From: Gammaproteobacteria bacterium
GTDB taxonomy: Bacteria > Pseudomonadota > Gammaproteobacteria > JBFIID01
Direction of reading: 5' to 3'
Assembly (NCBI GenBank): GCA_041601415.1
Contig: JBFIID010000001.1
Location: 1-36,245, forward strand
DNA length: 36,245 bases
Under the pieces are notes generated by a model. That model worked only from the letters and a program-made list of their open reading frames with translations. It ran no database searches and was not told where the DNA came from. Shown here one piece after another: positions 3,066 through 32,687 of this stretch. Positions within the stretch are counted from its first letter, which is position 1, and every line of letters starts with the position of its first letter. The position numbers and the translations under genes are program-made.

Positions 3066-3083
3066 CGAGCAGTCACAGATTTA

Positions 3084-3713: not shown

Positions 3714-3720
3714 GTCACTC

Positions 3721-6641: not shown

Positions 6642-6899
6642 GCAGCAATCCCTAGTAGGCTTTTCGCGGTTGATCACCGCTGACAATCTCAAACAGGCTC
6701 TTGTTAAAGCAGAACGTGATGAAGTAATTAGAGAATATCACATCATTGGATACGGGCTACATCTGTCTCGCCGGGCAGATCCGGATAGAAATTATTGACC
6801 TATGTTAGGTATTTTCTGGCAAACCCGAGCAATTTGGTACGGGAATGAGTGATCTGGTTCACAACAGTGTTAACCCATTAGAAATCATACATATATAGC

Positions 6900-10447: not shown

Positions 10448-10825
10448 CTAGAAGCTCTTCGCACCGCAGGGATAGCGCTGATGTAGTATTTCACTCACCA
10501 CGGCATAGCCATCATCCGCCGCCCGTTCAGGCATTTTCTGTAGTTGCTGAAGGATCGTCTGACGCACTTCGTCGAGGGTAATGACCTGCGGGTTAATACA
10601 GAACAGGGATGGTCCCTCACCTGCTTCCTGCATCGCCGTTACCGTCTGTACCAGGGTCACAATAAACGTATTACAGAAACTGGCTGCGGCTTCGGCCTGA
10701 CAGGCCTCGGCAAGTTCACCCGCACTGATGACCTCCTCCTCCGGCTGTTGTGCAGAAAGATTACTGCCAAGCAGCAGACCAAGGCCAAGCATTACAATCA
10801 ACAATCTAGGCATGAATTTCCTCAC
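10448..10825 (-). CDS. Secreted four-Cys protein, Rap1a/Tai4-like immunity-protein fold (tentative)
   Basis: Signal peptide MRKFMPRLLIVMLGLGLLLGSNLSA. The Cys spacing and context (ELAEAC...FCNTF...LFCINPQVITLDEV...MPER...RYPC) match my recollection of the Rap1a family pattern. It ends 5 nt upstream of the acyltransferase start. Confidence 0.4.
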   Translation of the reverse strand: MRKFMPRLLIVMLGLGLLLGSNLSAQQPEEEVISAGELAEACQAEAAASFCNTFIVTLVQTVTAMQEAGEGPSLFCINPQVITLDEVRQTILQQLQKMPERAADDGYAVVSEILHQRYPCGAKSF

Positions 10826-16094: not shown

Positions 16095-16592
16095 ATGGAT
16101 AAGCAACGTCTGGAATTGTTACAGGGCATGCCCGTGTTTGGTGGCATTGATGAAAGTATTCTGCAGTCACTGGTTGATATGAGTGACACCGTAGAGGTAC
16201 CAGCAGGAAGCTTTTTCTTTCATGAGGGCGATGAAGAGCATTCCATGTATGTGCTGGAATCAGGCGAAGTCATTGTGCTTAAAAACTGGGAGGGACAGCA
16301 GTATTTTCTATCGCGGCTATCGCGTGGGGACTGTCTCGGAGAAATGGCAATGATTGACCTCGACCGACGTGCTGGATCGGTACTCGCCGTAAAGGATTGC
16401 AGCGCTCTGGTCATCACCACCGACCACCTGCACGAAATCTATCAACGTGATGTCACCCAGTTCGCAATGATTCAGATGAATCTGAGCCGTGAATTATCCC
16501 GGCGATTACGCAAGGCCGATGAACGGATTTTTCTACCCCGTATCCGCGCGGTTAGCGTCGGTGGCGGTTATGAATTCATCTCCGAGGTCTAA
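16095..16592 (+). CDS. Stand-alone cyclic-nucleotide-binding (CNB) domain protein
   Basis: CNB beta-barrel with a phosphate-binding cassette (GDCLGEMAMIDLDRRAGSVLA). I see no HTH or other output domain in its 165 aa. Confidence 0.75.
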   Translation: MDKQRLELLQGMPVFGGIDESILQSLVDMSDTVEVPAGSFFFHEGDEEHSMYVLESGEVIVLKNWEGQQYFLSRLSRGDCLGEMAMIDLDRRAGSVLAVKDCSALVITTDHLHEIYQRDVTQFAMIQMNLSRELSRRLRKADERIFLPRIRAVSVGGGYEFISEV

Positions 16593-16598
16593 CTTCCA

Positions 16599-18416
16599 TT
16601 AGTGCTGCAGGTGTCCATACAGACGCTGATACAGTCCCCCGTTCTCAATCAACTCATCGTGCTGGCCTTCTTCGATGATGGAACCTCCGTCAAATACGTA
16701 AACACGATCGGCCTGTTTAACCGCACTTAAACGATGGGCAATGATCAGCGTTGTACGATCCTTTAGAAATTCTGCCATCGCCTGATGCAACAGCACTTCG
16801 GTCTCGGTATCCAGAGATGAGGTTGCCTCATCCAGAATCACGACTTTTGGATCCGCCAGGATCATTCGCGCTATCGCGAGACGTTGACGCTGTCCCCCCG
16901 AAAGGCGGATTCCCGTATTGCCAATCACGGTATCCAGCTTACCTGGCATCGCTTCTACCGTGCTTTTCAACTGCGCAACCTCAAGTACATTCCAGAGTTC
17001 CTGATCAGATAGCGTCGTCCCAAGCGTCAGATTATTCCTCACCGTGTCGTTAAACATCGCCGGATGCTGTAATACCGTGGCAACATGTTCACGCACCACA
17101 TCCATACCGATTTCGGTAACCGGCACATCATCAAAATAGATTTGACCGGAGTGTGGCGTATACATCCCCAGTATTATCTGCACCATGGTTGATTTTCCAC
17201 CTCCACTGGCGCCAACCAGAGCGACTTTTTCACGTGCGCCAATATCGAGGTTTATGTTATCCAGTACCGTTGGGTTATCACCATAGGCAAAGCTAATATC
17301 CCTCAGCTTCACAGAGACCGTAGTTGCCTTGTCGAAAGGGTTTTTCAGATGTGGATACTGCGGTTCCTGCTGCAGAGCCAGTAAACGATTTAAACGCGCC
17401 ATCGCTGCGCGTGCGGCAAAATAGGCGTATTGAATATTCAGGATTTCCTGTACCGGGCCCATCATGAACCACAGATAGCCAAATACCGCCATCATGCGAC
17501 CAACCGATAGATCCGAATACACTACCATGAGCATACTTATCGCCCGAAACACATCAAAACCAAATAAAAATACGGCAAATGAGAGGCGCCCAGCGGCGTC
17601 AGATTTCCAGGAAAAGTTACTCGAGTGGGTGCGAATATCACTGGCGGTATCGATGACTCGATTCAGGTAATGTTTCTCACGGTTGCTGGCGCGTATTTGC
17701 TGGATCGAATCCAGTGTTTCTGTGAGGCATTGCTGAAAAATCTCAAACGCAGAATTCTCTTTTTTCTTTAATTCTTTAACGCGCTTCCCCATGACCATGG
17801 TGAGATAGATCACAACCGGGTTCATTAACAAAATAAATAATGCCAGTTGCCAATGCATCCATAGCAGGATGATGCTGACGCCGATCAGAGTGAGTGAGGC
17901 GACCAGAAATTTACTTAACGTAGCGCCGACGAAGCTATCAACGGCATTCAGATCGGTCACAAAATGAGAGGCCACTGCACCACTGCCAACCACTTCATAC
18001 TCCGCCATGGAAATCCGCTCCAGGCGCGCAAGTAACTCACAACGAATACGATAGACCACATCTTTCGCAACCAGGGTGAATTTCTGCATCTGCCAGACCC
18101 CCAGAAACAGTGCGATCAGGCGTAACACCACCGTGATCAGAAGTATCGCCGAGAGATAGAGAACGGGGCCATGCCAATCTGCCGGAAATAATGCATTGAG
18201 ACTGGCGACAAGGGTACCCGGCTGGTTCAGCAGGACTTCGTCGACCAGCAGTGGCATCAGTAAAGGGATTGGGACACTGGCGATGGTTGCCAGAATGGCG
18301 ACCAGGTGGGCCGCGATTAAAGAGTGTTTATGTTCGCGTGCAATTCCAAGTACGTAGGCCCAGTCATACCCCTTTGCGGGTGGTGGGCGCCTTGTATTAC
18401 TACTGGTCATGATCAA
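16599..18416 (-). CDS. ABC exporter, fused permease-ATPase (type I exporter, MsbA/ABCB-like half transporter)
   Basis: Six-helix N-terminal TMD, Walker A GASGGGKST, signature LSGGQRQR and Walker B VVILDEATS. Length 605 aa. Confidence 0.88.
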   Translation of the reverse strand: MIMTSSNTRRPPPAKGYDWAYVLGIAREHKHSLIAAHLVAILATIASVPIPLLMPLLVDEVLLNQPGTLVASLNALFPADWHGPVLYLSAILLITVVLRLIALFLGVWQMQKFTLVAKDVVYRIRCELLARLERISMAEYEVVGSGAVASHFVTDLNAVDSFVGATLSKFLVASLTLIGVSIILLWMHWQLALFILLMNPVVIYLTMVMGKRVKELKKKENSAFEIFQQCLTETLDSIQQIRASNREKHYLNRVIDTASDIRTHSSNFSWKSDAAGRLSFAVFLFGFDVFRAISMLMVVYSDLSVGRMMAVFGYLWFMMGPVQEILNIQYAYFAARAAMARLNRLLALQQEPQYPHLKNPFDKATTVSVKLRDISFAYGDNPTVLDNINLDIGAREKVALVGASGGGKSTMVQIILGMYTPHSGQIYFDDVPVTEIGMDVVREHVATVLQHPAMFNDTVRNNLTLGTTLSDQELWNVLEVAQLKSTVEAMPGKLDTVIGNTGIRLSGGQRQRLAIARMILADPKVVILDEATSSLDTETEVLLHQAMAEFLKDRTTLIIAHRLSAVKQADRVYVFDGGSIIEEGQHDELIENGGLYQRLYGHLQH

Positions 18417-18980: not shown

Positions 18981-21497
18981 TCAGTTGTCACTCTCTCTAA
19001 AAGAAGCAAGGTCATCAAATAATGACTGTTCGTTCTGTTTACTTTTTTGCATCGCCTGCTCCGCACGCTTTGCGATTCGCTGCATTTGTTCCAGCATCCG
19101 AATATTTTCCTCTCGCTGGTTGGTAGAGTTTTCGAATTTCTCCTGATCTTGCGTCCATAACTCTATATCGTCTTCTATCATCTTTCGTAATTCGGCGGCA
19201 GTGTCTTCCGTACGTTTCATCTCCTGTGTATTGATGATCTGTGCATTATTTGCCGCCTTTTCTGCGAGTTGCGCAGATATCAGTTGCTCACGCGCCTGTT
19301 CAGCCATGGCTTCAACAGCGTTGATCTCATCCTGTAGCTTGGCCTGTTCAATGTTATCAGTTTCCTCTTCTGCGCGTTGTAACTGATTCAACCTTTCTAC
19401 TTCATTCTCAGCCTTCAGTCTTGCTGCTTCCGCCTCTTCACGTGCCTGAAGCGTGAGTTTTAACTCTTCCCGAATCCGTCGAGCCTCCTCCTCCAGCGTC
19501 TGCTTCTCCTGTCTCAGCTTTTCCTCTCCCAGTTCACGCGACTGATGATGTGAGGTTTTGAGTTCACTGATAATCTGTTCAGCTTCTTCTGTGGCAGCGC
19601 GCCTGGCGACTTCAGCTGCGACACGTGCTCGTTGTGCCTGATGAAGTTGCTGCGTTGTTCTGGCAAATTCACTTTCCAGTTTCTTTCTCTCCGTACGAAT
19701 TCTTTCCTCGGCCTCCATGCGCAGGCGCTGCTCCATCTGTTCCTGTTCCTCTGCCTGTTTCTTTAACTGTAATTCTGCCTGCTGCTTGAGTCGCTGGACC
19801 TCAGCCAACTGTGTGCGATTCGCGACACTCTGCTGCTCCAGTAGACGATGTTTGTTTTCCATCTCTACGGCAGCCTGTTCTTTCATTTTCTGTACACGTT
19901 GTAGTTCTTCCGTATTCCTGACGAAAACCTCTTCAAGCCGGGCTTTTTCTTCACGCATTCTTCGCTCTGATTCGGCCTGTAGCTGTTGAATTCTCTGCTC
20001 TTCCTGCAGACGCGTTTGTTCTACTTCTTTCTCAGCCTGTTCCTTCGCCGTGCTGATTTCCTGCTTCATTCGCTGCGCTTCCTGCAGTAGCTGATTGACA
20101 CGTTCAGCCTCTGCATTCATTTTTTCACGTTCCAGACGCAGTTTTTCCTCCAGCTCTTCCTCCATCTGACGACGCGCCGCCTCGACGACACTCCTGAGGT
20201 TTTCGGCCTCCTGCATCTGCAAATCTGCTTTCGCCAGGTCCGCCTTCAAACTGGCCGCTCTGACGCCAACATCCAGTGCAGACCTGTCATCCTCTTCCTG
20301 ACTCTGTTCGCCTGTCTCAGGATCAGCTGAAGCAGACTCCTGTTTCTGAGCGGGTAATTTTTCCTGTTGGTAATTAATTTCGGTAATGGATTCACTACTG
20401 TCAGGTTCATCGTCGACAGCATCTGCAAGCACCTGTGTATCTACACTGGCCGCAAAGGGCGTATTCATAATGCCCGATTCCAGATAACTCACATCAAGTC
20501 CCATCTTGCTCAGAAGATAGGCTGCAACCGAGGCACGACTGCTCACCTCTGAATAGATAATGTATTTTGTGTCTGGCGTGAGTTCACTGACCCGCTGGCG
20601 TAATTCTTTGAGGGGTATATTGATACTGCCAGGGATACTGCAGGCGGCGTGCTCATCCTGAAAGCGAATATCCAGCCAGACCCCGCCCGCTTCAACCAGG
20701 CTTATACCCTCTTCATAGCTCACCGAATTGAGCACCGGTTTTTTAATGAGTTCCGCGAAATCATCCTTGGTCAGTCGCATTACGGATCCCTCCGTTAACA
20801 TAACAACAGAGGCATTTCGCCGGGCACCTGAGACGAGTGCTTCTTCTCCGAAACTCTCCCCGGCGCGCAATTCAGCGAGCTGCACATCCTTTCCATCATC
20901 GGTGCTGCGCAATACCATGCAGCGCCCCTGCTGAATGATGTAATAATAATCTCCGGGTTCGCCCTGGGTAATTACCTTATCACCCGGCTTATAAGTCACC
21001 TCTTCCATGAGGCTGAAGATGCGCTGGATATTCGCGGCGGGAATACGCGAGAATAATTCCGACTCAAGCATTGTGCTCATCCAGTCGGCCTCATCATCTT
21101 CATCAGTTATTGTTATACCGGATGTGTCCTGAACATCTTCTGCATCGAGAGCAAGAAGCCGGTTCAATAAATCCTTGTCAAAACGGATCAGGATTGATTC
21201 ATGTGTGCATCTCGCCGACATCTGCCTCGGCTGTAATTGTGCCAGCGCATTACGCGCACCATCAGTGTCCTCCAGAACTTTTTTCACCAGAGAACCATCG
21301 GCATCCATCTCGACCTGACCTTTGAGCAGATAGTAAGCGTAGTTGTCACGGTCACCCTGTTTGAAAACCAGCTTCCCTTTCGGGTATTTAAACAACCTTC
21401 CCTGTTTTACGAGTTGATCCTGATACTTTTGCGACAGGCCATTGATAGGAATGAGGTTTTTAATCCGGCTCAGCAATTCTTCCTGTTGATTATCCAT
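18981..21497 (-). CDS. CNB(degenerate)-CNB-rhodanese-like-long coiled-coil protein, paralog 1 (838 aa)
   Basis: aa 15-120: CNB-like barrel lacking the FGE/R[ST]A cassette. Acidic linker DEDDEADW. aa 140-255: canonical CNB (GESFGEEALVSGARRNASV). aa 260-345: rhodanese-like (VWLDIRFQDEH...INIPL) whose active-site loop reads YSEVSSRAS, with no Cys. aa 407-838 (nt 18984-20279): uninterrupted E/Q/R/K/A-rich sequence typical of a coiled coil. Confidence 0.8.
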   Translation of the reverse strand: MDNQQEELLSRIKNLIPINGLSQKYQDQLVKQGRLFKYPKGKLVFKQGDRDNYAYYLLKGQVEMDADGSLVKKVLEDTDGARNALAQLQPRQMSARCTHESILIRFDKDLLNRLLALDAEDVQDTSGITITDEDDEADWMSTMLESELFSRIPAANIQRIFSLMEEVTYKPGDKVITQGEPGDYYYIIQQGRCMVLRSTDDGKDVQLAELRAGESFGEEALVSGARRNASVVMLTEGSVMRLTKDDFAELIKKPVLNSVSYEEGISLVEAGGVWLDIRFQDEHAACSIPGSINIPLKELRQRVSELTPDTKYIIYSEVSSRASVAAYLLSKMGLDVSYLESGIMNTPFAASVDTQVLADAVDDEPDSSESITEINYQQEKLPAQKQESASADPETGEQSQEEDDRSALDVGVRAASLKADLAKADLQMQEAENLRSVVEAARRQMEEELEEKLRLEREKMNAEAERVNQLLQEAQRMKQEISTAKEQAEKEVEQTRLQEEQRIQQLQAESERRMREEKARLEEVFVRNTEELQRVQKMKEQAAVEMENKHRLLEQQSVANRTQLAEVQRLKQQAELQLKKQAEEQEQMEQRLRMEAEERIRTERKKLESEFARTTQQLHQAQRARVAAEVARRAATEEAEQIISELKTSHHQSRELGEEKLRQEKQTLEEEARRIREELKLTLQAREEAEAARLKAENEVERLNQLQRAEEETDNIEQAKLQDEINAVEAMAEQAREQLISAQLAEKAANNAQIINTQEMKRTEDTAAELRKMIEDDIELWTQDQEKFENSTNQREENIRMLEQMQRIAKRAEQAMQKSKQNEQSLFDDLASFRESDN

Positions 21498-21658: not shown

Positions 21659-24253
21659 TCAATCGTCTTCCAGATCAAATTGCATAGAGAGTTCATTAAT
21701 CAGTTGAAGATCGTGCTGCTTGACGTCTTTACTGGCCTGTTCTGCTCTGGCCAGAATACGTTGCATTTCCTCACGTTGACGTTGCTCCAGACTACGCTGC
21801 TCATCACTATTGGCGTGGAGGGTCTGTTCGGTGATCCATTCCTGCAGGTCTGCTTCCAGTTGCTGACGCAGACCTTCCTCAGCCTCCTGCTGTTGATCCA
21901 GCTTAAGCCGATTATTCTCCTGGGCTGATTCTGCATCGGCATGTACTCGGCGTGCACTACGCAACTGATCGGATGCCTCGTGCAAACGTTCCTCGGTACT
22001 AGCAATGTCCTTTCCAATCTGTTGCTTTATACTATCTCCGGTGGCCTGCTTTTCAAGTAACCGTTTGGTGGCCTGTAAACGTTCCAGATCCTGTTCGGCA
22101 CGCTGCACCGCAAGTCCTGCATCTCGACTCGCGGTGCGCGAGACTAATAACATCTGTTGAATCCGGCTGGCTTCTACTTCAAGTTCTTTACGCTGTTCCT
22201 GCAGGCGTTGCTCCTGCTCCTTCATTGCCGCCTCATGTTCACGCCTGTATTCTTCGACAATTGCCTGCGCTTCACGGTTGGCGGCAATGCGTGTTTCCTC
22301 TGCGGTCTGTTTATCCTTTTGTGCCTGCTCAAGTAACTGACTGTTGTTCGCAAACTCCTGCTCAAGCCTGCGACGTTCAGCCAGCACCTCTGCTCGCATT
22401 TTCCGTTGTAGTGCTTCTTCTTTCCTGATCCTTTCCAACTGTTGTTGTTCGAGCTGTTTTTCAGCGGCTTTCTGGGCTGCTTGCATCACCTCTTTCATGC
22501 GTTGCACTTCACTCAACTGCTGACGATTTTCTTCAACCGTCCTGGACATTTCTCTACGTTCTTCAATCAGTCGGGCCTCTGCCTCCTGTTTAAGCTGTTT
22601 GATGTGTTCCAGTTCCTGAGTATTCCTGGCCGCGATCTGCTGCAATTTCTCCCGCTCAACTTCGAGGTTACGTTCCGCCTGTGTTTCAATTTCACGGATA
22701 CGTTGCTCAACCTTTACATGTGCCTCATTCGACTGTTGATCGGCGATCTGCTTGGCCTTCGCGATCTCCTGTTTAATCTGCTCTGCCTCATCAAGCATGG
22801 CCTTGGCACGCAGATTCTGATGTTCGATTTTCTCACGTTCGAGACGGAGCTTTTCCTCCATATCCCGTTCAATCTTTTCCCGTGCGAGTTCGAGCTCATG
22901 CTTCATTTGCACCGCATCGGAAAGAGATTCATTAATGCGCTGTTCCTGCTCCTTAAGCTTCAACTCCTGCTCACGCATTTGTGCCTCAGCACGCTGCTTC
23001 GCTCTTGCACCTTCAAGCTCGGCCTGTTTTTCCAGTCTTGCGGCCTCCTGCAACCTGATATTTGCGCGCGACAATTCACTATCCAGGGCCGCTGCACGCA
23101 CATCGGCAAGCACAGTCGCTCCACGATCCGGGGCCAAATTAGCCGGTTCTACAGAAGGCCTGGCAGTTTCTGTCACAGGCGTAGGGCTGATCGAGTTAAG
23201 ACCCGTCTCAAGAAAATACACGTCATAACCGAGATTAATCAGTATGAATGCCGCCACAGCAGCGAGACTGCCGTCGTCACAACAGGCGATATATGTCGAA
23301 TTTTCGTCAAGCCTTCTATGTTGAGCCCGAACCAACGGGAGGGGTAAGTTCAGGCTGTTTTCCAGAGACTTCTCGGCATGAGCCTGGGTAGAACGAACAT
23401 CTAGCCACACAGCACCCTCAGATACTCGTACGCGCGCCGTGTCGTTATTAACACCCTTCAAAATCGGCTTCAGCAGTAATTCGGCAAAGTGTTCCCGGTT
23501 GAGCCGCATCAACTCGCCATCTGAATCCATCGTCACAGAGGCGCTACGAATGGCGTTTGCAATGAGAGCCTCCTCACCAAAACAGTCTCCGGTATCGAGT
23601 TGCGCCAGTACGATGTCTTTCATGCCCACCGGAGATCGACGTGTGACACGCGCCTTGCCACTCTTGATGATGTAGTAGTAATCGCCCGGTTCACCCTGAC
23701 AAATGACAATTTCTCCAGCTTTCACTGGAATCGATTCCATACGACTAAATACCATCTGTATATTTGCCGCGGAGATTCGGGAGAACAGGGGGGAATTGAG
23801 GAGAATACTCATCCAGTCATCGTCATCCTCCTCTTCAAGGTCATGCACTTCGAAGTCGGCCTCATGAAGATTCCTTACCTCATCAAGCAAGCTCTCAAGC
23901 AATGTCCGTGAAGTACGGAACAGGGTAACGTCACTCACTGCTTTTGCGGTCATCTGACGTGGACGTAACTGTGACAGGCGGTATCTGGCCTCGTCACTAC
24001 CACCTTCAACCGTTTTCATCATCTGTCCATCACACTCAAGCTGCAACTTACCTTCCAGCAGATAAAACACGTGATCGTCTTTATCTCCCTGCCGGAATAT
24101 TGTTTGTCCTGCTGGGTAAGGTATAAGCTCGGACTGCTTAACGAGTTTTTTCTGTAACTCCAGGGGGAGGGAATTCAGGGGGTCAAGATCACGGATCACT
24201 TCTGGCATCAGGGTGACCAGGCCGGGATCGGAATGTTTTTTCGCTTGTATCAT
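21659..24253 (-). CDS. CNB(degenerate)-CNB-rhodanese-like-long coiled-coil protein, paralog 2 (864 aa)
   Basis: Same domain order as paralog 1: degenerate CNB, EEEDDDDW linker, canonical CNB (GDCFGEEALIANAIRSASV), then a rhodanese-like domain with loop IACCDDGSLA in which Cys is retained. aa 383-864 (nt 21662-23107) are E/Q/R/K/A-rich coiled coil. No obvious SD precedes the ATG at 24253. Confidence 0.8.
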   Translation of the reverse strand: MIQAKKHSDPGLVTLMPEVIRDLDPLNSLPLELQKKLVKQSELIPYPAGQTIFRQGDKDDHVFYLLEGKLQLECDGQMMKTVEGGSDEARYRLSQLRPRQMTAKAVSDVTLFRTSRTLLESLLDEVRNLHEADFEVHDLEEEDDDDWMSILLNSPLFSRISAANIQMVFSRMESIPVKAGEIVICQGEPGDYYYIIKSGKARVTRRSPVGMKDIVLAQLDTGDCFGEEALIANAIRSASVTMDSDGELMRLNREHFAELLLKPILKGVNNDTARVRVSEGAVWLDVRSTQAHAEKSLENSLNLPLPLVRAQHRRLDENSTYIACCDDGSLAAVAAFILINLGYDVYFLETGLNSISPTPVTETARPSVEPANLAPDRGATVLADVRAAALDSELSRANIRLQEAARLEKQAELEGARAKQRAEAQMREQELKLKEQEQRINESLSDAVQMKHELELAREKIERDMEEKLRLEREKIEHQNLRAKAMLDEAEQIKQEIAKAKQIADQQSNEAHVKVEQRIREIETQAERNLEVEREKLQQIAARNTQELEHIKQLKQEAEARLIEERREMSRTVEENRQQLSEVQRMKEVMQAAQKAAEKQLEQQQLERIRKEEALQRKMRAEVLAERRRLEQEFANNSQLLEQAQKDKQTAEETRIAANREAQAIVEEYRREHEAAMKEQEQRLQEQRKELEVEASRIQQMLLVSRTASRDAGLAVQRAEQDLERLQATKRLLEKQATGDSIKQQIGKDIASTEERLHEASDQLRSARRVHADAESAQENNRLKLDQQQEAEEGLRQQLEADLQEWITEQTLHANSDEQRSLEQRQREEMQRILARAEQASKDVKQHDLQLINELSMQFDLEDD

Positions 24254-24940: not shown

Positions 24941-25201
24941 ATGCATTTCAACGAACTGAACCAGGTTTCATTCCGTGAAAAACAGTTGTTAAACGACATT
25001 TTTGCCTGTGAGCAAACTCTGGGCAGAAAAGAAGAAGAATTAATGGAAGACCTGGCCTACTATCAGGGCAGGTTGATGGCAGCTAAACAGTCCCCAACTC
25101 AAACCGAGTTATACCAGGAACACATTCATGCAATTCAGGCCCTGCTGGCTGAAATCTACCTGGATGCGGAAGTCGCTACTGAGGAATTCTGCTACGCCTG
25201 A
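24941..25201 (+). CDS. Hypothetical helical protein (86 aa)
   Basis: ORF with an AGGGGA SD 7 nt upstream, downstream of the sigma-54-like promoter, followed by a 9-bp hairpin. I recognise no motif. Confidence 0.55.
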   Translation: MHFNELNQVSFREKQLLNDIFACEQTLGRKEEELMEDLAYYQGRLMAAKQSPTQTELYQEHIHAIQALLAEIYLDAEVATEEFCYA

Positions 25202-25383: not shown

Positions 25384-26226
25384 ATGGATTACCATATCAG
25401 CAAAAAAATCTTGATACTTGATGATCAGCCTGAGATCACCAGTATGCTTGAGATCCAGATAGGTCAGACGTTTGACTGTGTCTTTGTTAACGATCCCTCA
25501 GAAGCCCTGTCCCTGCTGCTTGCAGAAGGGCCGTTTGCTGTAATCATGTCTGATTACCAGATGCCGGGAATGGACGGCGTTACCTTCCTGCAGGAGGCCA
25601 ATGCAAGAAGTCCAGACAGCATTCCAATAATGCTGACCTCTCATATCGATATAGACATTGCGGTTGCGGCCTTGCATGAAGGCAATATTTTCCGGTTTCT
25701 GCGCAAGCCCTGGGAACGGGATGTCATCGTCAAGTCCATCACTGATGCAATGGAACTCTATCGGATAAAAGTCTCGGAACGACTACTGAAAAGAGATCTT
25801 GAACAGGCCAATGAGGAATTGTCGGCTAAGGTTCAGCAACTGATGGAAAGCAATAGCCTGCTGCAACACTGGGTGGAATTCAGCCCGGCAGTAGTGTACT
25901 CACTCGAAGAGCATGATGACGGTTATAAAACCAGTTATGTGAGCAAAAACTTTGAAGATTTGTGTGGCTATGATCGTACCGAATTGTTATCCAATCCGAA
26001 GTTCTGGCTGGATCTGATCCATCCCGATGACCGTTCCAGCGCGATAAAAACAATCATGAACGCTCTGAGCTCGGATCAGGATCCGGGCGTCTACTCGTAT
26101 CGTATCAAACACCGAAACGGTGACTACATAACAATCCAGGATGCCTCGAGAATCGCCTATAACCCGGTCAATAATCGCAAGGAACTGATTGGTGCATGGA
26201 CCAGAATTAATACCACAGCCAACTAG
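25384..26226 (+). CDS. Response regulator: receiver (REC) domain, coiled-coil linker, PAS domain; no enzymatic or DNA-binding output
   Basis: REC with an intact acidic pocket (LILDDQ), phospho-acceptor Asp (VIMSDYQMPGMDG), Thr/Ser (MLTS) and Lys (FLRKPW). A helical linker follows (LKRDLEQANEELSAKVQQLMESN), then a PAS fold (SPAVVYSLEE...YVSKNFEDLCGYDRTELL...IHPDD...YRIKHRNGDY). Confidence 0.8.
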   Translation: MDYHISKKILILDDQPEITSMLEIQIGQTFDCVFVNDPSEALSLLLAEGPFAVIMSDYQMPGMDGVTFLQEANARSPDSIPIMLTSHIDIDIAVAALHEGNIFRFLRKPWERDVIVKSITDAMELYRIKVSERLLKRDLEQANEELSAKVQQLMESNSLLQHWVEFSPAVVYSLEEHDDGYKTSYVSKNFEDLCGYDRTELLSNPKFWLDLIHPDDRSSAIKTIMNALSSDQDPGVYSYRIKHRNGDYITIQDASRIAYNPVNNRKELIGAWTRINTTAN

Positions 26227-26252: not shown

Positions 26253-27533
26253 TCAAAGGCGTTTCGAGAGTTCCTGGCTGGTCTCAGAGAGCCGTTTGAT
26301 GAGTAATTTCTGAAACAGTTTATTGGTGCGCATCTGCACCTGAAGTGACGCCCATTCGGGCAGTGGCGTATCAATTTTAAGCAGAATCACATGATCCAGC
26401 GCCCTTACAGTCGCTGTTCGTTTACCACCGTCCAGATAGGCCATTTCCCCAAAGCAATCACCCGCAGATAAATTTGCAATGATCTTGCGGTTTCTTTCGA
26501 CGGTGACCTGTCCGGAAATGATGATATAAAAACCATCCTGATCATCACCCTCTTCAATCAACGCGCTGTTCCTTGGAAAGGATACCCACTCAGCAACGTC
26601 AACCACCTCTTCTAGCTCCAGTTCAGAGAACTCTTTAAAAAATACCAGCCCCTTGAGGAGTTCCAGTTTCTGCTGATCATTCATCAGACGGACGGGATCC
26701 TGCAGGTCTTCCAGTACCAGCCGCAGATCATCTGCCATTTGCGTACCGTTCTGATAACGATCAGGTAGTTTCTTTTGCAGTGCCCGTTCTACAACCTGAT
26801 TGAGTGATTGCGGTAATTCAGGGCGGAGCTCAATAACCGGCTGTTGTGCCTTATTGATTACATTGTTGATCAGTCCGGAGATACCCTTGGCCGCAAACGG
26901 CGTAGACCCGACCAGCATTTCGTACAACACAACACCAAGAGAAAACAGATCCGTCTGATGGGTGAGTTGTCCATCTGCAGCCTGCTCTGGCGACATGTAC
27001 ATGGGTGAACCATACCAACCGAGAATCTGTGTCTTATCGGCCATGGTACGCTGCGCGATACCGAAATCCCCTATTTTGACCTGTCCCTGCTCCGTCAGCA
27101 TGATATTGGCGGGTTTAATATCCCGGTGGGTAATACCGCGCTCATGTGCGTAGTTCAACGCATCGGCACAATTCATAATGTAGCGAACCACCGTTTCTAC
27201 CGGAAGTAAAACATCTTTTTTGCAGAAGGATCTCAGGGTGTCAGCATGTTCAACAAATTCCATGGAGATATAGGGCTGACCGTCGGCGTCTCCCGCATCA
27301 TAGACTTTCAGAATATTCGGATGATCCAGTGAGCCTGCGGCCTGTGCCTCGTTGAAAAAGAGTTTGCGCGCTTTATGCACCTCTTCTTCTTCAACTTCTT
27401 CGATGGTGCTAACCTTAATCGCAACCTGACGATCAACGAACGGGTCATAGCCGATATAGACCATTCCCATGGCCCCCTTACCGGCGACCCCTGTGATCTC
27501 ATACTTCCCGATTTTTTCCGGCAGGGATTCCAT
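26253..27533 (-). CDS. Hanks-type Ser/Thr protein kinase fused to a C-terminal cyclic-nucleotide-binding domain
   Basis: Kinase motifs: GKGAMGMVY, VAIKV, HRDIKPANIML, IGDFGIA, MSPEQ. The C-terminal CNB has a canonical cassette GDCFGEMAYLDGGKRTATVRA. The start overlaps the stop of the upstream gene by 1 nt (TAATG at 27533). Confidence 0.85.
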   Translation of the reverse strand: MESLPEKIGKYEITGVAGKGAMGMVYIGYDPFVDRQVAIKVSTIEEVEEEEVHKARKLFFNEAQAAGSLDHPNILKVYDAGDADGQPYISMEFVEHADTLRSFCKKDVLLPVETVVRYIMNCADALNYAHERGITHRDIKPANIMLTEQGQVKIGDFGIAQRTMADKTQILGWYGSPMYMSPEQAADGQLTHQTDLFSLGVVLYEMLVGSTPFAAKGISGLINNVINKAQQPVIELRPELPQSLNQVVERALQKKLPDRYQNGTQMADDLRLVLEDLQDPVRLMNDQQKLELLKGLVFFKEFSELELEEVVDVAEWVSFPRNSALIEEGDDQDGFYIIISGQVTVERNRKIIANLSAGDCFGEMAYLDGGKRTATVRALDHVILLKIDTPLPEWASLQVQMRTNKLFQKLLIKRLSETSQELSKRL

Positions 27534-30500
27534 TATGCAACCTCTTCCATCACTACGGATTCGGCGACAGCCAGACCCTGTATATAATCCACGCCTATGT
27601 CCTTCAACGACTCTATGGTCTTCTCATTATTGACCTGATCAGCAATGGTCTTTTTACCCATAAGGTGACCAATCTCATTCATTGATCTAACCAATGCGAG
27701 GTCATTAGGGTTTTTATGCATGCCACGAACGAACAAACCGTCCATCTTGATGAAATCAATTGGCAGAGTATTCAGATAGCCCTGCGCTGTGTCACATTGC
27801 CCAAACCCACCCATACTAAACTTGCATCCGAATTCTTTCATGGTACGAATAAAGCGTTCCGCCTCCTGTTGATTATCAATCACAACTGACTGTTTAATCT
27901 CGAAACAGACTTTCCCCGCAGGCACCCTGGACTCGGTCAACTGCGCAATAATATATTCAATTAACTTATCATCACACAATGAAAGTTCACTGATGTGAAT
28001 CGCACACACCGCCACATCTTTTAGTGTCTTTCTATGGGCAAACATCCATTGCAGCGATCCACGGATCAGCATTCTATCAATCTCGGGACTCTGTTTATTC
28101 AGATGTGCGGCCTGTAGAAAATCCTCCTGTGGGATGAGGATGCCATCCTCGTCTTCAATCCCCAGTATGATCTCATATTGTTCTTTGTCCTTGCTGTCCG
28201 AATGCAGGGGAACTATGCGTTGATAACGCAGCTTCAGAGATTCAGATTTGACGACTTTCTCGACCAGTGCGCGCCAGTCCTTTTTAACCTCTTCGAGCCC
28301 GGTATCTGCCTCATCCTGTGTATGGACATATATCTGGTTTTTTCCCTGTTTCTTCGCGTTGGCCGCCGCACCTGTCACTTCATCAAGCAATTTTTCGGCC
28401 GAGATATCCAGCTCCTGCAGTGACAAAAGACCAATCGATGCACCCACTGTGAACATCTGTTCCTGCCATTTAAAACGGAAGGCCTTAATGTCCTCCAGCA
28501 AAGACTGGAGCTGCTGTTCTGCAGCCTGCTTGTCAACGTCCTTCATCAGTACTGAAAAGCGATCTCCCCCCAGACAACCCGGCAATGGTTGTGGAAAATG
28601 CTCTCGCATAAACTTAGCCAGGGACTTTAACAGGTCATCGGCAGCGTCCTGGCCAAACTTTCTGTTCATTGCTGCTACGCAGTCAAAATTAACTTCTGCC
28701 AGGATGGAGTCTACTCCTGTCTGTTCAACGGCAAGTTGAACTTGTTTGATTTTTTCCATCATATGGCGGCGATTTGGTAGCCCTGTAATCGCTTCATTAT
28801 TGGCCTGCTGGCCTATTTCGTCATGCATCTTATACAGGGTGGTTCGCATCGCACGGTCAACCGGCGGCAGGGTAGGCTTTTCGAGCAGTACGGCAGTACC
28901 ACGGCGTAGCTGCATCGCCAGTTCCTGTAAGGTCATATTCAGGGCTTTATTACCGTTAGCGTCAACAAACACATAGGGGTTGTAGTTGTCACCAATCCAG
29001 GCCAGCGTTACACAATCATCATTTTCAGATGCTTTTTTGATCCCTAACAAGTCGCCGATTTGCATTTTCATCGCACGTTCCAGCCACAGACGCCAGTCAG
29101 CGGGTTGTCGATCTGCATTCGCTAATGGATCAATGTCTGCCGATTTGCCACCACGACGTTTGCGTAACAGTTCCTGCTGCTGCTGATACTGTTTCACTAC
29201 CTGATCAACATTGGACTCATAACGTTCCTGTTGCTGGTGAGCCAGGTGACTGATTTCCGGCATCATCTCGGCAAAGACATTGGCGTCCTGATCATAGTTC
29301 TGATTAATACGCTCCACGATGGTGTCGAGCTGTTCGATGGTCTCGCTATCACCGGCAACTTTAAGATCCGCTATCTGATTCAGTACGGCTCTTGCAGGAT
29401 GCGCTTCATCACTCAGAAAAGCGCCATCCTTGATCGCGAGTTTCTGGATAGTTCCCTGCATCTGGGTAAGACGTGACTTGATCCCTGAACCGAGAAGGTG
29501 ATCAACATCGAATGAACTAACGAATTTGTCAGCCATATTCAGTGCATTTGCATGCGCCTGATTAATTTCAATCGGTGTATCGTCACCCACACGACTTTTA
29601 AGAATTCGTTTAATTCTTGACATGTTATCTTCATTGCCCAGTTCATTCTTCCAGCCTGAGCGATTTTCCCTTTGCAGGACAGACAGGGCCTCCAGAATAT
29701 CTTCACTGGCATATTGCTGGTAGGAAGCGGGCCCCGTATTTTGGCCTGCGACTTCAGAACCCGTGCTCATAGCAGGCACCGGGTTCGTCCCGAACTGTCC
29801 ACCGCCGCTCGAAGACAATGGTGGTGCAACTGAGGGGGCAGCACCTCCCATTGCACCTGCACCTACAGGGCTGCCGGAAGGCATTGAATGCGGTGTCATA
29901 CCCGGTGCATGACCGGCAACCGGTGTGGGCACAACCGCAGAGAAATTACCCTGTTTCAGATTCATCAGATTCTGCATTGCCTGCATGGTCTGACCCGCAG
30001 GTGTGCGGGGAGCCAATTGATTGTCTACCTGACCCGTTACACCTGGACCTGATGGCATCGCAGGCTGCGGGTGAGCTGTTGCAGGAGCTGTCCCTGTCGC
30101 CAACGGTGTCTGGCCGGGTACAGCAGCAGCGCCAGTCGTCGCAGCTGTCTGCCCTGACGTATTTCCCTGAGGACTCACAGCACTACCAGTGGGGGGAATG
30201 CTGTCTGCCGTATTACTCAATTCCTGGGTGTTTGACAACGGCTCAACCACCTCATCAATCTGGCGAGTCGGTTTTGACGTAGGTTTTTTCCAGCCTTCTG
30301 TCTCTGGCTTCTTCTCGGGGAGGCTATAGTATTTGCGTAAAGACTCGTCCAGATCACGGAAGAAAAACTCCAGCCGAGGCACCACGGACTCTTCATAGAC
30401 ACGAAATAAAAGTTCGTTGGTATCGTAACTCAGGTCTATCTGATCCTTGGCGTTCGAAAAGGCAGAGGTGATGGCCGAAACCCCTAGCGGGTTAGTGCCT

Positions 30501-31321
30501 CGTTCCATGGGAAGATTAAACAACTGGCTCAGACGAATTTCTATCTTGTCTAACAATTCGCTATAGCGTGGTTCTGCACGCGAGACAATTTCGGAAGAGG
30601 TCAGAAGATCCTCGAAATCGTCTTTTTCGATCAGTTTCAGTTCACCAGACTGATTAATATTAGAAAAGTCCGGTGCCTGGCCCGATTGCCCCGTCTGTTC
30701 ATACGTTTCCTGTATTTCGTTGAGAAAATAGCTGCTGATGTCAGCCTGTTTCTTTTTTAGCAGGTTCATACATCCGAAATAATCACTCTGCTGCACATTA
30801 TTTTTTGCATCTCGAGCGGCAATAAATAATTGCTCATCGGCCTGTTCAAAGAAGGTCTTTATCAGTGATTTAAGATGCTTTGCAGACAGGAACCAGGTCT
30901 CGTCGAGCACCTTGGCATTTCTTTCCTGTGGCAAGTCAGAACGCCCCAGAGTTGCCTCTGCTTTTTGCTGCTCTGCCAGCAAGGTAAGCGCCTTGAGTGC
31001 ATCTTCCGCAGGGTTTATAAATGCAGCGCCGATCCCTGTGTTGAATACACGCGCGATACTGCCCTGCATTTTGAAAGCGCGCCTCGCCTCATTCAGTTCG
31101 ACATTAAAACTGATGGTTATCTTGTCATCACGCGACAAAAAGCTGATTGCTTCTGCATTGGCCTGAGGGTTTACCAGCGCCAGAAACATTCCCCCGGGGC
31201 AAAAATCCCTTATTTTGCACTGAATATTGGCTGATTTTGCGGTATTCAGAGACGCATCGAGGGATAGAGACTGCCGTACAAATGCACGTTGGTTATTACC
31301 GGAAGAATTATCAGCAGACAT
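27533..31321 (-). CDS. PilZ - DUF1631 - degenerate GGDEF - degenerate EAL multidomain protein (1262 aa)
   Basis: The N-terminal PilZ has RxxxR (RAFVR) and a D-x-C-x-x-G variant of DxSxxG (DFCPGG). DUF1631 hallmarks are present (ADEQLFIAARDAKNNVQQSDYFGCMNLLKKK near the start, LAWIGDNYNPYVFVDANGNK near the end). A P/G/A/T/S-rich insert of about 170 aa lies within it (aa 365-535). The GGDEF domain reads GGDRF (nt 28556-28570) and also lacks the upstream Asp, Lys and His residues. The EAL domain reads YEIILG, with N to H (AIHIS), DDFG to GGFG and EGVE to DQVN. Confidence 0.8.
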   Translation of the reverse strand: MSADNSSGNNQRAFVRQSLSLDASLNTAKSANIQCKIRDFCPGGMFLALVNPQANAEAISFLSRDDKITISFNVELNEARRAFKMQGSIARVFNTGIGAAFINPAEDALKALTLLAEQQKAEATLGRSDLPQERNAKVLDETWFLSAKHLKSLIKTFFEQADEQLFIAARDAKNNVQQSDYFGCMNLLKKKQADISSYFLNEIQETYEQTGQSGQAPDFSNINQSGELKLIEKDDFEDLLTSSEIVSRAEPRYSELLDKIEIRLSQLFNLPMERGTNPLGVSAITSAFSNAKDQIDLSYDTNELLFRVYEESVVPRLEFFFRDLDESLRKYYSLPEKKPETEGWKKPTSKPTRQIDEVVEPLSNTQELSNTADSIPPTGSAVSPQGNTSGQTAATTGAAAVPGQTPLATGTAPATAHPQPAMPSGPGVTGQVDNQLAPRTPAGQTMQAMQNLMNLKQGNFSAVVPTPVAGHAPGMTPHSMPSGSPVGAGAMGGAAPSVAPPLSSSGGGQFGTNPVPAMSTGSEVAGQNTGPASYQQYASEDILEALSVLQRENRSGWKNELGNEDNMSRIKRILKSRVGDDTPIEINQAHANALNMADKFVSSFDVDHLLGSGIKSRLTQMQGTIQKLAIKDGAFLSDEAHPARAVLNQIADLKVAGDSETIEQLDTIVERINQNYDQDANVFAEMMPEISHLAHQQQERYESNVDQVVKQYQQQQELLRKRRGGKSADIDPLANADRQPADWRLWLERAMKMQIGDLLGIKKASENDDCVTLAWIGDNYNPYVFVDANGNKALNMTLQELAMQLRRGTAVLLEKPTLPPVDRAMRTTLYKMHDEIGQQANNEAITGLPNRRHMMEKIKQVQLAVEQTGVDSILAEVNFDCVAAMNRKFGQDAADDLLKSLAKFMREHFPQPLPGCLGGDRFSVLMKDVDKQAAEQQLQSLLEDIKAFRFKWQEQMFTVGASIGLLSLQELDISAEKLLDEVTGAAANAKKQGKNQIYVHTQDEADTGLEEVKKDWRALVEKVVKSESLKLRYQRIVPLHSDSKDKEQYEIILGIEDEDGILIPQEDFLQAAHLNKQSPEIDRMLIRGSLQWMFAHRKTLKDVAVCAIHISELSLCDDKLIEYIIAQLTESRVPAGKVCFEIKQSVVIDNQQEAERFIRTMKEFGCKFSMGGFGQCDTAQGYLNTLPIDFIKMDGLFVRGMHKNPNDLALVRSMNEIGHLMGKKTIADQVNNEKTIESLKDIGVDYIQGLAVAESVVMEEVA

Positions 31322-31604: not shown

Positions 31605-32687
31605 ATGCAGTCCCCCGATACGATTGAACATCTTGATACTCTGCTCACCGAAGCACGTCGAAATGAATCGACCTGGAAGCGTTTTCAGCAGATGGAATTA
31701 AGCCTGATGTCCTGTGAATCATTACAGGACCTGTTTTCCCTGATTTATCAGCAGACCCGTCGCGAACTTGACTGTGAGTACAGTCGATTACAGCTACTCG
31801 ATCCTGGTTTCATTCTGCAGCGACTGCTAGAAGAATCCGGTATTCAGACTGGTGCAGAAACGATAGAACTGACATTTTGTGACCGTGAGCATCCGTTTAA
31901 TCTGCGCTATCCAGAATGTCATCGACCTGTACTGGGGCAATACGAAACGCTTCAGCATGCCGAGTTCTTTGCCAACGGCATAACCCCCCGATCTTTTGCC
32001 CTGCTACCGCTGATTCGAGGTGGCGTCCTGATTGGTAGCCTGAACCTCGGCAGTCTTGATGCAAACAGGTTTCATCATGCCAGTGCAACCGACTTTCTAC
32101 AGCATTTCTCGTCGGTCATTGCGGTCTGTCTCGAATCAATGGAGGGGCGTGAACGCCTCAAACACCTGGGCCTGAAAGATGCCCTGACCGGAATTAATAA
32201 TCGCCGTTTTTTTGACCAGCGTCTGCTTGAAGAAGTATCACGTGCCCAACGTAACAACCTGAGCCTGAGTGCCCTGTTTATCGACATTGATCATTTCAAA
32301 TCAATCAATGACCAGTATGGACATAAGATGGGCGACTTTATTTTACAGCAGGTCGCTCAGAATATTCGTGTCCAGTTACGAACCACAGACACCGTCGCGC
32401 GTTATGGCGGAGAGGAATTTGCCGCTTTACTCTGTGCAGACACCATGACCGCGGTTGAGATTGCAGAACGTATTCGCATCAGCACCCATCAGCACAGTAC
32501 ACCGAGCCCGGATAGCGGTGAACCCATACAGGTTAGCGTCTCGATTGGCATCGCCAGTTTGACTGATCTTGATCGCAGTTTAAGCAGTGATGATATTGCC
32601 CAGCAGTTAATCCACCTGTCAGATACCGCGCTCTATCATGCAAAGTCGGCGGGCAGGAACCGTACGATTATTTATCAGCCAGAGTGA
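31605..32687 (+). CDS. GAF/DUF484-like sensor domain diguanylate cyclase (intact GGEEF with I-site)
   Basis: DALTGINNRRFF, IDIDHFKSINDQYGHKMGD, and RTTD-TVARY-GGEEF (an RxxD I-site at canonical spacing). The N-terminal 170 aa look GAF-like (LPLIRGGVLIGSLNLGS). Confidence 0.85.
   Translation: MQSPDTIEHLDTLLTEARRNESTWKRFQQMELSLMSCESLQDLFSLIYQQTRRELDCEYSRLQLLDPGFILQRLLEESGIQTGAETIELTFCDREHPFNLRYPECHRPVLGQYETLQHAEFFANGITPRSFALLPLIRGGVLIGSLNLGSLDANRFHHASATDFLQHFSSVIAVCLESMEGRERLKHLGLKDALTGINNRRFFDQRLLEEVSRAQRNNLSLSALFIDIDHFKSINDQYGHKMGDFILQQVAQNIRVQLRTTDTVARYGGEEFAALLCADTMTAVEIAERIRISTHQHSTPSPDSGEPIQVSVSIGIASLTDLDRSLSSDDIAQQLIHLSDTALYHAKSAGRNRTIIYQPE

Follow-up and report, generated by a model that had tools for sequence, protein, structure and literature searches.

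Can a bacterium's Ser/Thr kinase of the Hanks type be placed under the direct control of a cyclic nucleotide, and with what would such a kinase work? Control of protein kinases by cyclic nucleotides is a textbook principle of eukaryotic signalling, and the cyclic nucleotide-binding (CNB) domains of bacteria gate transcription factors, channels, an acetyltransferase and cyclic di-GMP (c-di-GMP) enzymes. The question is raised by a gene in a 36,245-nucleotide stretch of DNA from a Gammaproteobacteria bacterium (assembly GCA_041601415.1, contig JBFIID010000001.1, positions 1 to 36,245; hereafter the window), which encodes a kinase domain followed by a CNB domain on one chain and which we call the kinase-CNB gene. 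We found that this gene is no oddity but has a large, conserved family around it, and that at every evaluable locus of its own clade it adjoins the gene of a PilZ-DUF1631-GGDEF-EAL protein of about 1200 aa, which we call the partner. The overall picture, to which we assign a probability of about 0.5, would be a two-messenger module in which a kinase gated by cyclic AMP (cAMP) or cyclic GMP (cGMP) works together with a receptor for c-di-GMP.

In kind, the kinase-CNB protein would count among the enzymes gated by a CNB domain or, seen from the other side, among the Hanks kinases fused to a sensor, and the combination of Pkinase and CNB domains is certainly already listed in architecture databases. 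The initial annotation had stated that cyclic nucleotide control of a bacterial Hanks kinase is not an established paradigm, and this agrees with the open-access full-text literature, in which our searches turned up no bacterial Hanks kinase that carries a CNB domain and has been characterised by experiment. CNB goes unmentioned in a survey from 2005 of kinase architectures in prokaryotes, and the one mention that we met is in a 2024 survey of kinase domains in Planctomycetota, which lists CNB among the associated domains without follow-up (PMC11032199).

Domain organisation and predicted structure of the kinase-CNB protein

The gene and its parts are as follows.

26253..27533, minus strand: kinase-CNB gene, 426 amino acids (aa); ATG at 27533, stop codon 26253-26255 (open reading frame (ORF) list and Pfam)
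26754..27503, minus strand: Hanks-type Ser/Thr kinase domain, residues 11-260, PknB-like (Pfam Pkinase, Foldseek)
26985..27068, minus strand: activation segment D156-E183 (DFG...SPE), with the conserved Thr168 as candidate autophosphorylation site (sequence reading)
26586..26753, minus strand: last part of the kinase C-lobe, a short linker and the helices that open the CNB module, residues 261-316 (AlphaFold2 secondary structure)
26370..26585, minus strand: CNB beta-roll, residues 317-388 (Pfam cNMP_binding)
26406..26453, minus strand: phosphate-binding cassette F361-GEMAYLDGGKRTATV-376 (cassette residues conserved among 117 members)
26256..26369, minus strand: hinge W394-A395-S396 and long C-terminal helix 397-425 (AlphaFold2 helices 391-394 and 397-425)

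The complete set of Hanks motifs, the canonical CNB domain and the order of the two, with the kinase N-terminal and a single CNB C-terminal, had all been claimed from the sequence alone, and all three were borne out, at a level well beyond chance. Pkinase spans residues 11-260 (E-value 3.6e-47, 161 bits against a cut-off of 31.7) and cNMP_binding residues 317-388 (E-value 1.9e-18, 66.6 bits against a cut-off of 27.5), and Pfam recognised exactly one CNB domain. On reading the sequence, every motif that had been quoted was present: in the N-lobe, G18-K-G20-A-M-G23, V37-A-I-K40-V and the alpha-C glutamate E62, and in the C-lobe, H136-RDIKPAN-143-IML, D156-F-G158, S181-P-E183, D195 of subdomain IX and R259 of subdomain XI. 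The phosphate-binding cassette is intact, as FGEMAYLDGGKRTATV at residues 361-376 contains both the G-E pair that contacts the ribose 2'-OH and the R-[S/T]-A triad that contacts the phosphate. No transmembrane segment was detected in the protein, whose top Kyte-Doolittle 19-residue mean of 1.45 falls within kinase helix F; PASTA repeats after the kinase domain and a helix-turn-helix (HTH) DNA-binding domain gave no Pfam match, and the chain stops at the C-terminal helix (residue 426). These features point to a soluble, catalytically competent PknB-type Ser/Thr kinase, and two candidate identities were rejected, namely a PASTA/PknB receptor kinase, owing to the missing transmembrane helix and PASTA match, and a CRP/FNR transcription factor, owing to the missing HTH and an NCBIfam CRP score of 33 bits against a cut-off of 266.

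The kinase half is bacterial in its relationships. The top 22 Foldseek matches were Mycobacterium tuberculosis PknB and PknA (33-34% identity, TM-score 0.83-0.89 normalised by target length), AGC kinases ranked lower (e.g., Rsk2, 24% identity), and the best NCBIfam model for the kinase was PknB_PASTA_kin at 274 bits against a cut-off of 450; no NCBIfam model reached its cut-off for this protein. Thr168 is probably the site of activation-loop autophosphorylation, because the activation-loop threonines of PknB serve as an analogy. For the CNB half, the closest solved sequences came from Plasmodium PKG, PKA RI-alpha and PKG I, in each case from their CNB domains. Significant matches extended to M. 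tuberculosis CRP and to Bd1971 of Bdellovibrio.

An AlphaFold2 model built on a 37-sequence alignment was confident and compact, with a mean predicted local distance difference test score (pLDDT) of 86.9 and a predicted template modelling score (pTM) of 0.74; the inter-domain segment was ordered, and the activation loop, residues 161-174, was the only segment with pLDDT below 50. In this model the last kinase helix stops at residue 277, a coil of about 8 residues (278-285) follows, and residues 286-313 form the helices on the N-terminal side of the CNB module (helices over the whole segment: 263-277, 286-294 and 304-313; mean pLDDT 83-93 per 10-residue block over 261-320). A linker of about 20 residues had been proposed by the initial annotation; a linker does exist, but the length was off, as the coil has about 8 residues and the gap between the Pkinase and cNMP_binding Pfam envelopes has 56. 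The linker is acidic (net charge -3) and contains no RRx[S/A] pseudosubstrate, and residues 255-310 have no dibasic motif except KK 254-255 inside the kinase domain. Eight DSSP beta-segments, seven of at least 3 residues, were assigned over 315-387 with flanking helices 304-313 and 391-425, and a 29-residue helix (397-425) closes the protein directly after the beta-roll.

A large family in which the kinase and CNB residues are conserved together

A copy identical to the 426-aa protein is encoded on other assemblies, as found by exact-protein look-up, and a protein search listed 120 clusters at 50-100% identity, all of about 425-440 aa, full-length and with both domains. These family members are labelled merely 'serine/threonine protein kinase', and the organism, where stated, is 'MAG: Gammaproteobacteria bacterium'. 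Scanning metagenomes with two family-specific C-terminal patterns, G[ED]C[FV]GE[ML].. and [EDR]WAS[LI][PS].Q[MLI]R, confirmed at least 586 relatives. Among 94 family ORFs in 80 fetched metagenome loci, 88 had the kinase domain and the remaining 6 were cut by contig ends; thus, the C-terminal module was never seen without the kinase, which is what an obligate fusion would give, because all 88 ORFs not cut by a contig end carry it.

Residue conservation was counted over 117 full-length members that fall into two clades of about 40-50% mutual identity, the DUF1631-linked clade to which the window protein belongs and a sister clade. The catalytic residues K40, D138, K140, N143 and D156 are kept in 116-117 of these (K40 in all 117), E62 in 116, E183 in 114 and R137 in 113. 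In the cassette, G362 and E363 are kept in 117/117 members, R372 in 114, [S/T]373 in 115 and A374 in 114. This joint conservation is the pattern expected of purifying selection on kinase chemistry and cyclic nucleotide binding alike. T168 is kept in 106/117 members, and Q400 is near-invariant in both clades. W394 of the hinge is found in 56/56 members of the DUF1631-linked clade, and Q or R stands there in the sister clade.

No solved structure matched both domains together. A search of 72,556 plasmids and 50,697 phages gave no carrier of the full Pkinase and CNB architecture, and 2.9 million viral contigs yielded a single weak relative at 27% identity. A profile scan of genome contigs with motifs generic to kinases gave 80 kinase-only paralogues spread over many phyla, and the family C-terminal module was missing from all of them. 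When the C-terminal 165 aa served as the query of a representative search, most of the matches were multi-CNB repeat proteins.

A clade-specific partner with c-di-GMP-type domains

The gene immediately upstream of the kinase-CNB gene encodes the partner, with the following features.

27533..31321, minus strand: partner gene, 1262 aa, PilZ-DUF1631-GGDEF(degenerate)-EAL(degenerate) (Pfam)
27531..27535, minus strand: TAATG junction, in which the partner stop and the kinase start share one base (sequence reading, GCA-TAATG-GAA)
30983..31294, minus strand: PilZ domain, residues 10-113, motifs R-AFV-R and D-F-C-P-G-G (Pfam, 23.5 bits against a cut-off of 22.5)
28817..30928, minus strand: DUF1631 region, residues 132-835 (Pfam E-value 7.6e-73; DUF1631_2nd and _C also listed)
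29687..30256, minus strand: low-complexity S/T/P/G/A/Q-rich insert in DUF1631, residues 356-545, 38 Ser+Thr (composition scan)
28334..28792, minus strand: degenerate GGDEF domain, motif GGDRF (Pfam E-value 1.6e-17; alignment to RbdA/PA0861)
27560..28252, minus strand: degenerate EAL domain (Pfam E-value 7.4e-42; alignment to RbdA 5xgb)

The stop/start overlap, together with GGAAGAGG located 7-14 nt upstream of the kinase ATG, suggests that the partner and kinase genes are translationally coupled. To evaluate how constant this arrangement is in the DUF1631-linked clade (clade A), we used 6 genomes obtained by exact-protein look-up and 13 metagenome loci, and the partner adjoined the kinase gene in 19/19 evaluable loci, two of which (L099 and L122) are possibly duplicates. 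By exact look-up it was adjacent in 6/6 genomes. Five of these hold relatives with 51-59% identity, the longest contig reaching 4.7 Mb, and at these five loci the partner was the constant neighbour and every other flanking gene differed. In the metagenomes, all 12 members at 49.8-55.9% identity to the window protein with at least 1.3 kb of upstream sequence had the partner, and so did L094 at 46.7%. The two genes were co-directional at 9 of the 13 metagenome loci (gaps of -90 to +124 nt) and divergent at 4 (132-413 nt), and the pair at L087 is also divergently transcribed.

The linkage is specific to this clade. In the sister clade (at most 48% identity) 33 ORFs had 3.6 kb or more of sequence upstream, and none of the 33 had the partner as neighbour; the loci examined instead adjoin pgi and a CBS-pair gene, or phosphoenolpyruvate (PEP) mutase and nucleotidyltransferase genes. 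Likewise, the stand-alone DUF1631 genes of Pseudomonas and Rhodanobacter have no kinase neighbour. Several further observations concern these loci. Sister-clade genes are often tandem paralogues 1.5-3.8 kb apart (L098, L109, L120, L123, L130, L135 and L147, and further L155, L156, L162, L166, L169 and L151); at L098, L101 and L130 each sister-clade copy is divergent from pgi and the CBS-pair gene or from the PEP-mutase/nucleotidyltransferase pair, and at L089 a sister-clade copy lies beside pgi, about 6 kb from the DUF1631-linked copy. The kinase protein P0006 occurs in two assemblies (L088 4555..7032 compared with L089), and in one of them an IS21-family element (transposase and IstB) splits the partner gene between GGDEF and EAL, a natural disruption that could be informative.

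The partner appears to have lost the chemistry of its enzymatic domains. Aligned to the active phosphodiesterase RbdA (PDB 5xgb), its EAL positions read EIILG, H, EIKQ, GGFG, KMD, DQVN and QG against the expected E(AL)xR, N, ExxE, DDFG, KxD, E(G)VE and QG, so that DDFG is replaced by GGFG, the metal-binding N by H, ExxE by EIKQ and ExVE by DQVN. Across 18 partner orthologues, the canonical GG[DE]EF was found in none and the complete EAL catalytic set in only about 2-3. The partner was thus rejected as an active diguanylate cyclase on the GGDRF motif and the absence of canonical GG[DE]EF in the orthologues, and as an active c-di-GMP phosphodiesterase on the lost catalytic and metal-binding residues of EAL. 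The PilZ RxxxR motif is kept in 13/13 orthologues with an aligned N-terminus, and the solved or curated relatives include FimX and LapD, two receptors of c-di-GMP without catalytic activity. Because GGDEF is degenerate in 18/18 orthologues and EAL in most, the partner looks like a c-di-GMP receptor and not an enzyme, a sensor that would neither produce nor degrade its ligand. The insert in DUF1631 measures 40-264 aa in 17/18 kinase-linked partners, in general well above the 42-69 aa of 5 stand-alone DUF1631 proteins, and its abundance of Ser and Thr makes it a candidate substrate region for the kinase.

Other genes in the window

A further gene lies on the other side of the pair, convergent with the kinase-CNB gene.

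25384..26226, plus strand: REC-PAS_3 response-regulator gene, 280 aa, a lineage-restricted accessory neighbour (Pfam)

It is also present at the P0006 and P0038 loci, has 47% identity to the L090 copy, and was not found at the 13 more distant clade-A loci. Upstream of it, an 86-aa ORF (24941..25201, plus strand) without a Pfam match is also called in the independent assembly L081. Divergent from the partner-kinase pair is a DUF484/GAF-GGDEF gene (31605..32687, plus strand; RTTD-TVARY-GGEEF), whose product is probably an active, product-inhibited diguanylate cyclase, because GGEEF is intact and an RxxD I-site stands five residues upstream; outside the window it was seen only in L081, another assembly with the identical kinase, and not at the five homologue loci looked up.

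Four genes with CNB domains, the kinase included, lie within the 36 kb, and the three others suggest that cyclic nucleotide signalling is prominent in this organism. Two are tandem paralogues of 838 aa (18981..21497, minus strand) and 864 aa (21659..24253, minus strand), each with two cNMP_binding domains and Rhodanese; about 480 C-terminal residues of each have no Pfam match even at E<=1, and their CNB parts weakly match PADLOC models of Pycsar TIR effectors. The third is a stand-alone CNB protein of 165 aa (16095..16592, plus strand), convergent with an ABC exporter (16599..18416, minus strand; ABC_membrane and ABC_tran), with a sub-threshold match to TIGR03896 'bacteriocin-type transport-associated protein' (47.6 bits against a cut-off of 161). 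Farther away, 2154..6692 (minus strand) holds a PqiA, MlaD-domain (PqiB-like) and ABC_trans_aux (PqiC-like) operon followed by a LolA-like lipoprotein-sorting gene, and the operon looks like an ordinary envelope lipid-transport locus. A 125-aa ORF (10448..10825, minus strand) gave a match to Rap1a, a family of immunity proteins in type VI secretion (E-value 1.5e-12), and no type VI secretion effector was recognised beside it. Rfam returned no RNA element in the window, and scans for promoters and terminators there did not rise above the shuffled expectation.

Proposed mechanism and alternative explanations

In the mechanism that we favour, cAMP or cGMP would bind the CNB cassette (G362-E363 ... 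R372-T373-A374) and control the kinase in cis. Binding would reposition the hinge W394-A-S and the long C-terminal helix, and this movement would alter the packing of the sensor against the kinase, relieve a restraint and permit autophosphorylation, probably at Thr168. A shift of hinge and C-helix on ligand binding is how CNB domains work in general (summarised in PMC6717892), and the ligand would be expected to activate the kinase, as it does in every CNB-enzyme fusion characterised so far. The kinase and the partner most likely interact, with the identity of the ligand, the sign of regulation, the interaction and the substrate all put forward by inference; the kinase may phosphorylate the disordered Ser/Thr-rich insert of the partner, or the partner may scaffold or gate the kinase, and the levels of cyclic nucleotide and c-di-GMP would thereby be integrated into one phosphorylation output. 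In its most specific form, which we offer only tentatively, the two proteins would make up a two-messenger coincidence detector, in which the cyclic nucleotide switches on the kinase, the partner reads c-di-GMP, and phosphorylation or gating by the partner couples both.

Several lines of evidence argue for this mechanism. The kinase is likely to be competent because its Hanks catalytic residues are conserved and its fold is PknB-like, and the two domains were always fused in uncut ORFs. The CNB is likely to be ligand-competent because its cassette is conserved across two clades and its similarity is highest to genuine cyclic nucleotide-binding domains. The kinase-partner module is supported because the adjacency is constant, the linkage is clade-specific, stop and start overlap by 1 nt, and W394 is private to the clade. 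The reading of the partner as a receptor draws on its PilZ motif, on its degenerate GGDEF and EAL and on the phenotypes of PacR, which are of the c-di-GMP type, and Bd1971 and XC_0249 offer precedents for a convergence of cyclic nucleotides on c-di-GMP. Several points weigh against the mechanism. The packing of the CNB sensor on the kinase is read solely from pTM and pLDDT. Adjacency of genes would speak for co-inheritance and probably co-expression, not for physical interaction. Neither the window nor the sequence around the six looked-up loci contained an adenylate or guanylate cyclase, and no PP2C phosphatase or FHA protein lies nearby. In the PilZ domain, a family-specific D-[FY]-C-x-x-G, with Cys for the canonical Ser of [D/N]xSxxG, stands in 12/13 orthologues, so that c-di-GMP binding by this domain is only putative. 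The idea that the insert is the substrate is weakened by a shorter Ser/Thr-rich insert in kinase-less DUF1631 proteins and by the L094 partner, which has no insert by the criterion used. The sequence also leaves cAMP and cGMP indistinguishable, as residue 373 is Thr as in PKG, Ser and Thr alternate across the family, and CRP has Ser.

The alternative that survives best keeps the link to the partner and changes the switch. The CNB and C-helix could dimerise in the manner of CRP, and the cyclic nucleotide would re-orient the dimer so that the kinases pair back-to-back and trans-autophosphorylate as PknB does; regulation would then act in trans and not by intramolecular docking. PknB-type kinases activate by dimerisation, and the sequence matches to M. 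tuberculosis CRP and Bd1971 reach into the C-helix (query residues 53-162). That helix, 29 residues long and placed directly after the beta-roll, is found likewise in CRP and Bd1971, which dimerise there (PMC6717892). Nevertheless, it has no clear heptad pattern, a modest hydrophobic moment and a weak coiled-coil signal, the best CNB matches are of the cis-acting PKG/PKA type, and even as a monomer the protein gives a compact, confident model (pTM 0.74), and we therefore regard the dimer switch as unlikely.

It is also conceivable, although doubtful, that the two proteins are co-transcribed and biochemically independent, so that a cyclic nucleotide-regulated kinase would hit other targets, such as the REC-PAS regulator or global substrates, and the partner would be merely co-regulated or share the pathway. 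Consistent with this, the REC-PAS gene is conserved beside the kinase in the three closest lineages, and the divergent pairs at 4/13 metagenome loci and at L087 mean that the two genes do not always form one operon; bacterial Hanks kinases are moreover typically pleiotropic (PMC4601284). On the other hand, adjacency in 19/19 loci across about 47-60% protein identity, with the other neighbours changing, is stronger than usual for mere co-regulation, the occurrence of W394 in the hinge follows that of the partner, and REC-PAS is missing from most clade members.

A further explanation, which we consider very doubtful, questions the ligand itself. The CNB could bind c-di-GMP, as in CRP proteins of the Clp/Bcam1349 type, a cyclic pyrimidine or a non-nucleotide, or it could only dock the partner. 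The locus is rich in c-di-GMP domains, including the GGEEF cyclase with its I-site, a cyclic nucleotide cyclase was not seen nearby, and CNB domains of the window weakly match the Pycsar cyclic-pyrimidine effector models. However, the residues that contact ribose and phosphate are near-absolutely conserved, which a pure docking domain would not need, and the kinase-CNB protein itself has no Pycsar match. Moreover, the CRP homologues that bind c-di-GMP do so outside the cassette and need the DNA-binding domain.

Finally, an anti-phage defence kinase of the PD-T4-6 or MADS type, whose CNB would sense an infection-induced nucleotide, is very improbable and was rejected, as the strong scores to PADLOC PD-T4-6 and mad6 models (E-value down to 1.3e-79) and to NCBIfam MAD6 (147 bits against a cut-off of 460) cover only the generic kinase domain (residues 8-286), the partner and neighbours have no defence matches, the synteny is stable and chromosomal and not like that of a defence island, and the searched plasmid, phage and viral records offer no mobile context beyond the one weak viral-contig relative.

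Significance

The preferred reading, of a cAMP- or cGMP-gated kinase acting with a c-di-GMP receptor, would matter in several respects. As a soluble protein of a large and strongly conserved family, with one sensor and one catalytic domain, the kinase offers a clean system in which the principle of cyclic nucleotide control of kinases could be tested in bacteria. The pairing with the partner shifts the key question from cyclic nucleotide regulation to the coupling of cyclic nucleotide and c-di-GMP signalling, and its invariance suggests a specific model of cross-talk between cAMP or cGMP and c-di-GMP; the conserved partnership gives a sharper lead, and one more open to testing, than the original proposal. 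If the model is true, its new element would be that the convergence of the two messengers is routed through Ser/Thr phosphorylation between two proteins, as the known precedents lie within single proteins, and it would be the first case in bacteria of Ser/Thr phosphorylation linking cyclic nucleotide to c-di-GMP signalling. A first molecular way into the DUF1631/PacR domain would be a further gain; this domain is associated with strong virulence and biofilm phenotypes in Xanthomonas.

Comparison with known systems

The initial annotation had described the protein as PKA/PKG-like logic in reversed order, and this can be kept as an analogy only. The CNB domains of PKG and PKA are the best solved sequence matches of the CNB described here, and regulation of the kinase by a cyclic nucleotide, as in PKG and PKA, is plausible. 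The differences are that the domain order is reversed, that one CNB takes the place of the two to four in PKG and PKA, that the kinase is PknB-type and not AGC, and that, compared with PKG, there is neither a pseudosubstrate or autoinhibitory RRx motif nor a leucine zipper. Membership of the PKA/PKG (AGC) group was rejected on the PknB-type kinase, the single C-terminal CNB and the missing pseudosubstrate. Because a bacterial PknB-type kinase is joined to a standard CNB and these three hallmarks of PKA/PKG failed, the protein looks like an independent fusion outside the PKG family, and not a rearranged PKG. M. tuberculosis PknB is the closest in kinase fold and sequence and shares the conserved activation-loop Thr followed by Gln, but PknB sits in the membrane as a receptor kinase and carries its PASTA sensors outside the cell, whereas here a cytoplasmic CNB is fused to the C-lobe of a soluble kinase.

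For the partner, the only studied DUF1631 protein is PacR (XC_3388) of Xanthomonas campestris, the loss of which causes hypermotility, low extracellular polysaccharide, disturbed biofilm and induction of GGDEF genes (PMC9543026). PacR shares the DUF1631 region with the partner and is distantly related, but it is a stand-alone DUF1631 protein of about 750 aa; the PacR family model NF058594 (NCBIfam) matched the partner at 55.7 bits against a cut-off of 1200 and over residues 145-375 only, and membership of the PacR family was rejected on this sub-cut-off, partial-length match. FimX and LapD have a degenerate GGDEF-EAL pair, as the partner does, but both are without PilZ and DUF1631.

The nearest bacterial functional analogy to the kinase-CNB protein is mycobacterial Pat (Rv0998 / MSMEG_5458), a single-chain enzyme in which a CNB gates a protein-modifying domain (PMC8316039) and to which the CNB described here has a weak NCBIfam match; the CNB of Pat is N-terminal, however, and its output is lysine acetylation and not Ser/Thr phosphorylation. 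Myxococcus xanthus Pkn1 carries a Ser/Thr kinase and a PilZ domain, predicted not to bind c-di-GMP, on one chain (PMC8316039). It likewise combines a Hanks kinase with a c-di-GMP-type sensor domain, but its PilZ is on the kinase chain, whereas in the window it is the neighbouring protein that carries the PilZ, and the kinase has a CNB. Closest to the proposed cross-talk are Bd1971 of Bdellovibrio, a CNB-EAL enzyme that is activated about 8-fold by cAMP or cGMP (PMC6717892), and XC_0249 of Xanthomonas, a CNB-GGDEF protein in a cGMP pathway (PMC3770947). In both, cAMP or cGMP sensed by a CNB feeds c-di-GMP signalling, and the CNB of Bd1971 is a significant sequence match; there, the CNB gates a c-di-GMP enzyme on its own chain, whereas the link proposed here would run through a kinase and a separate, degenerate, receptor-like protein.

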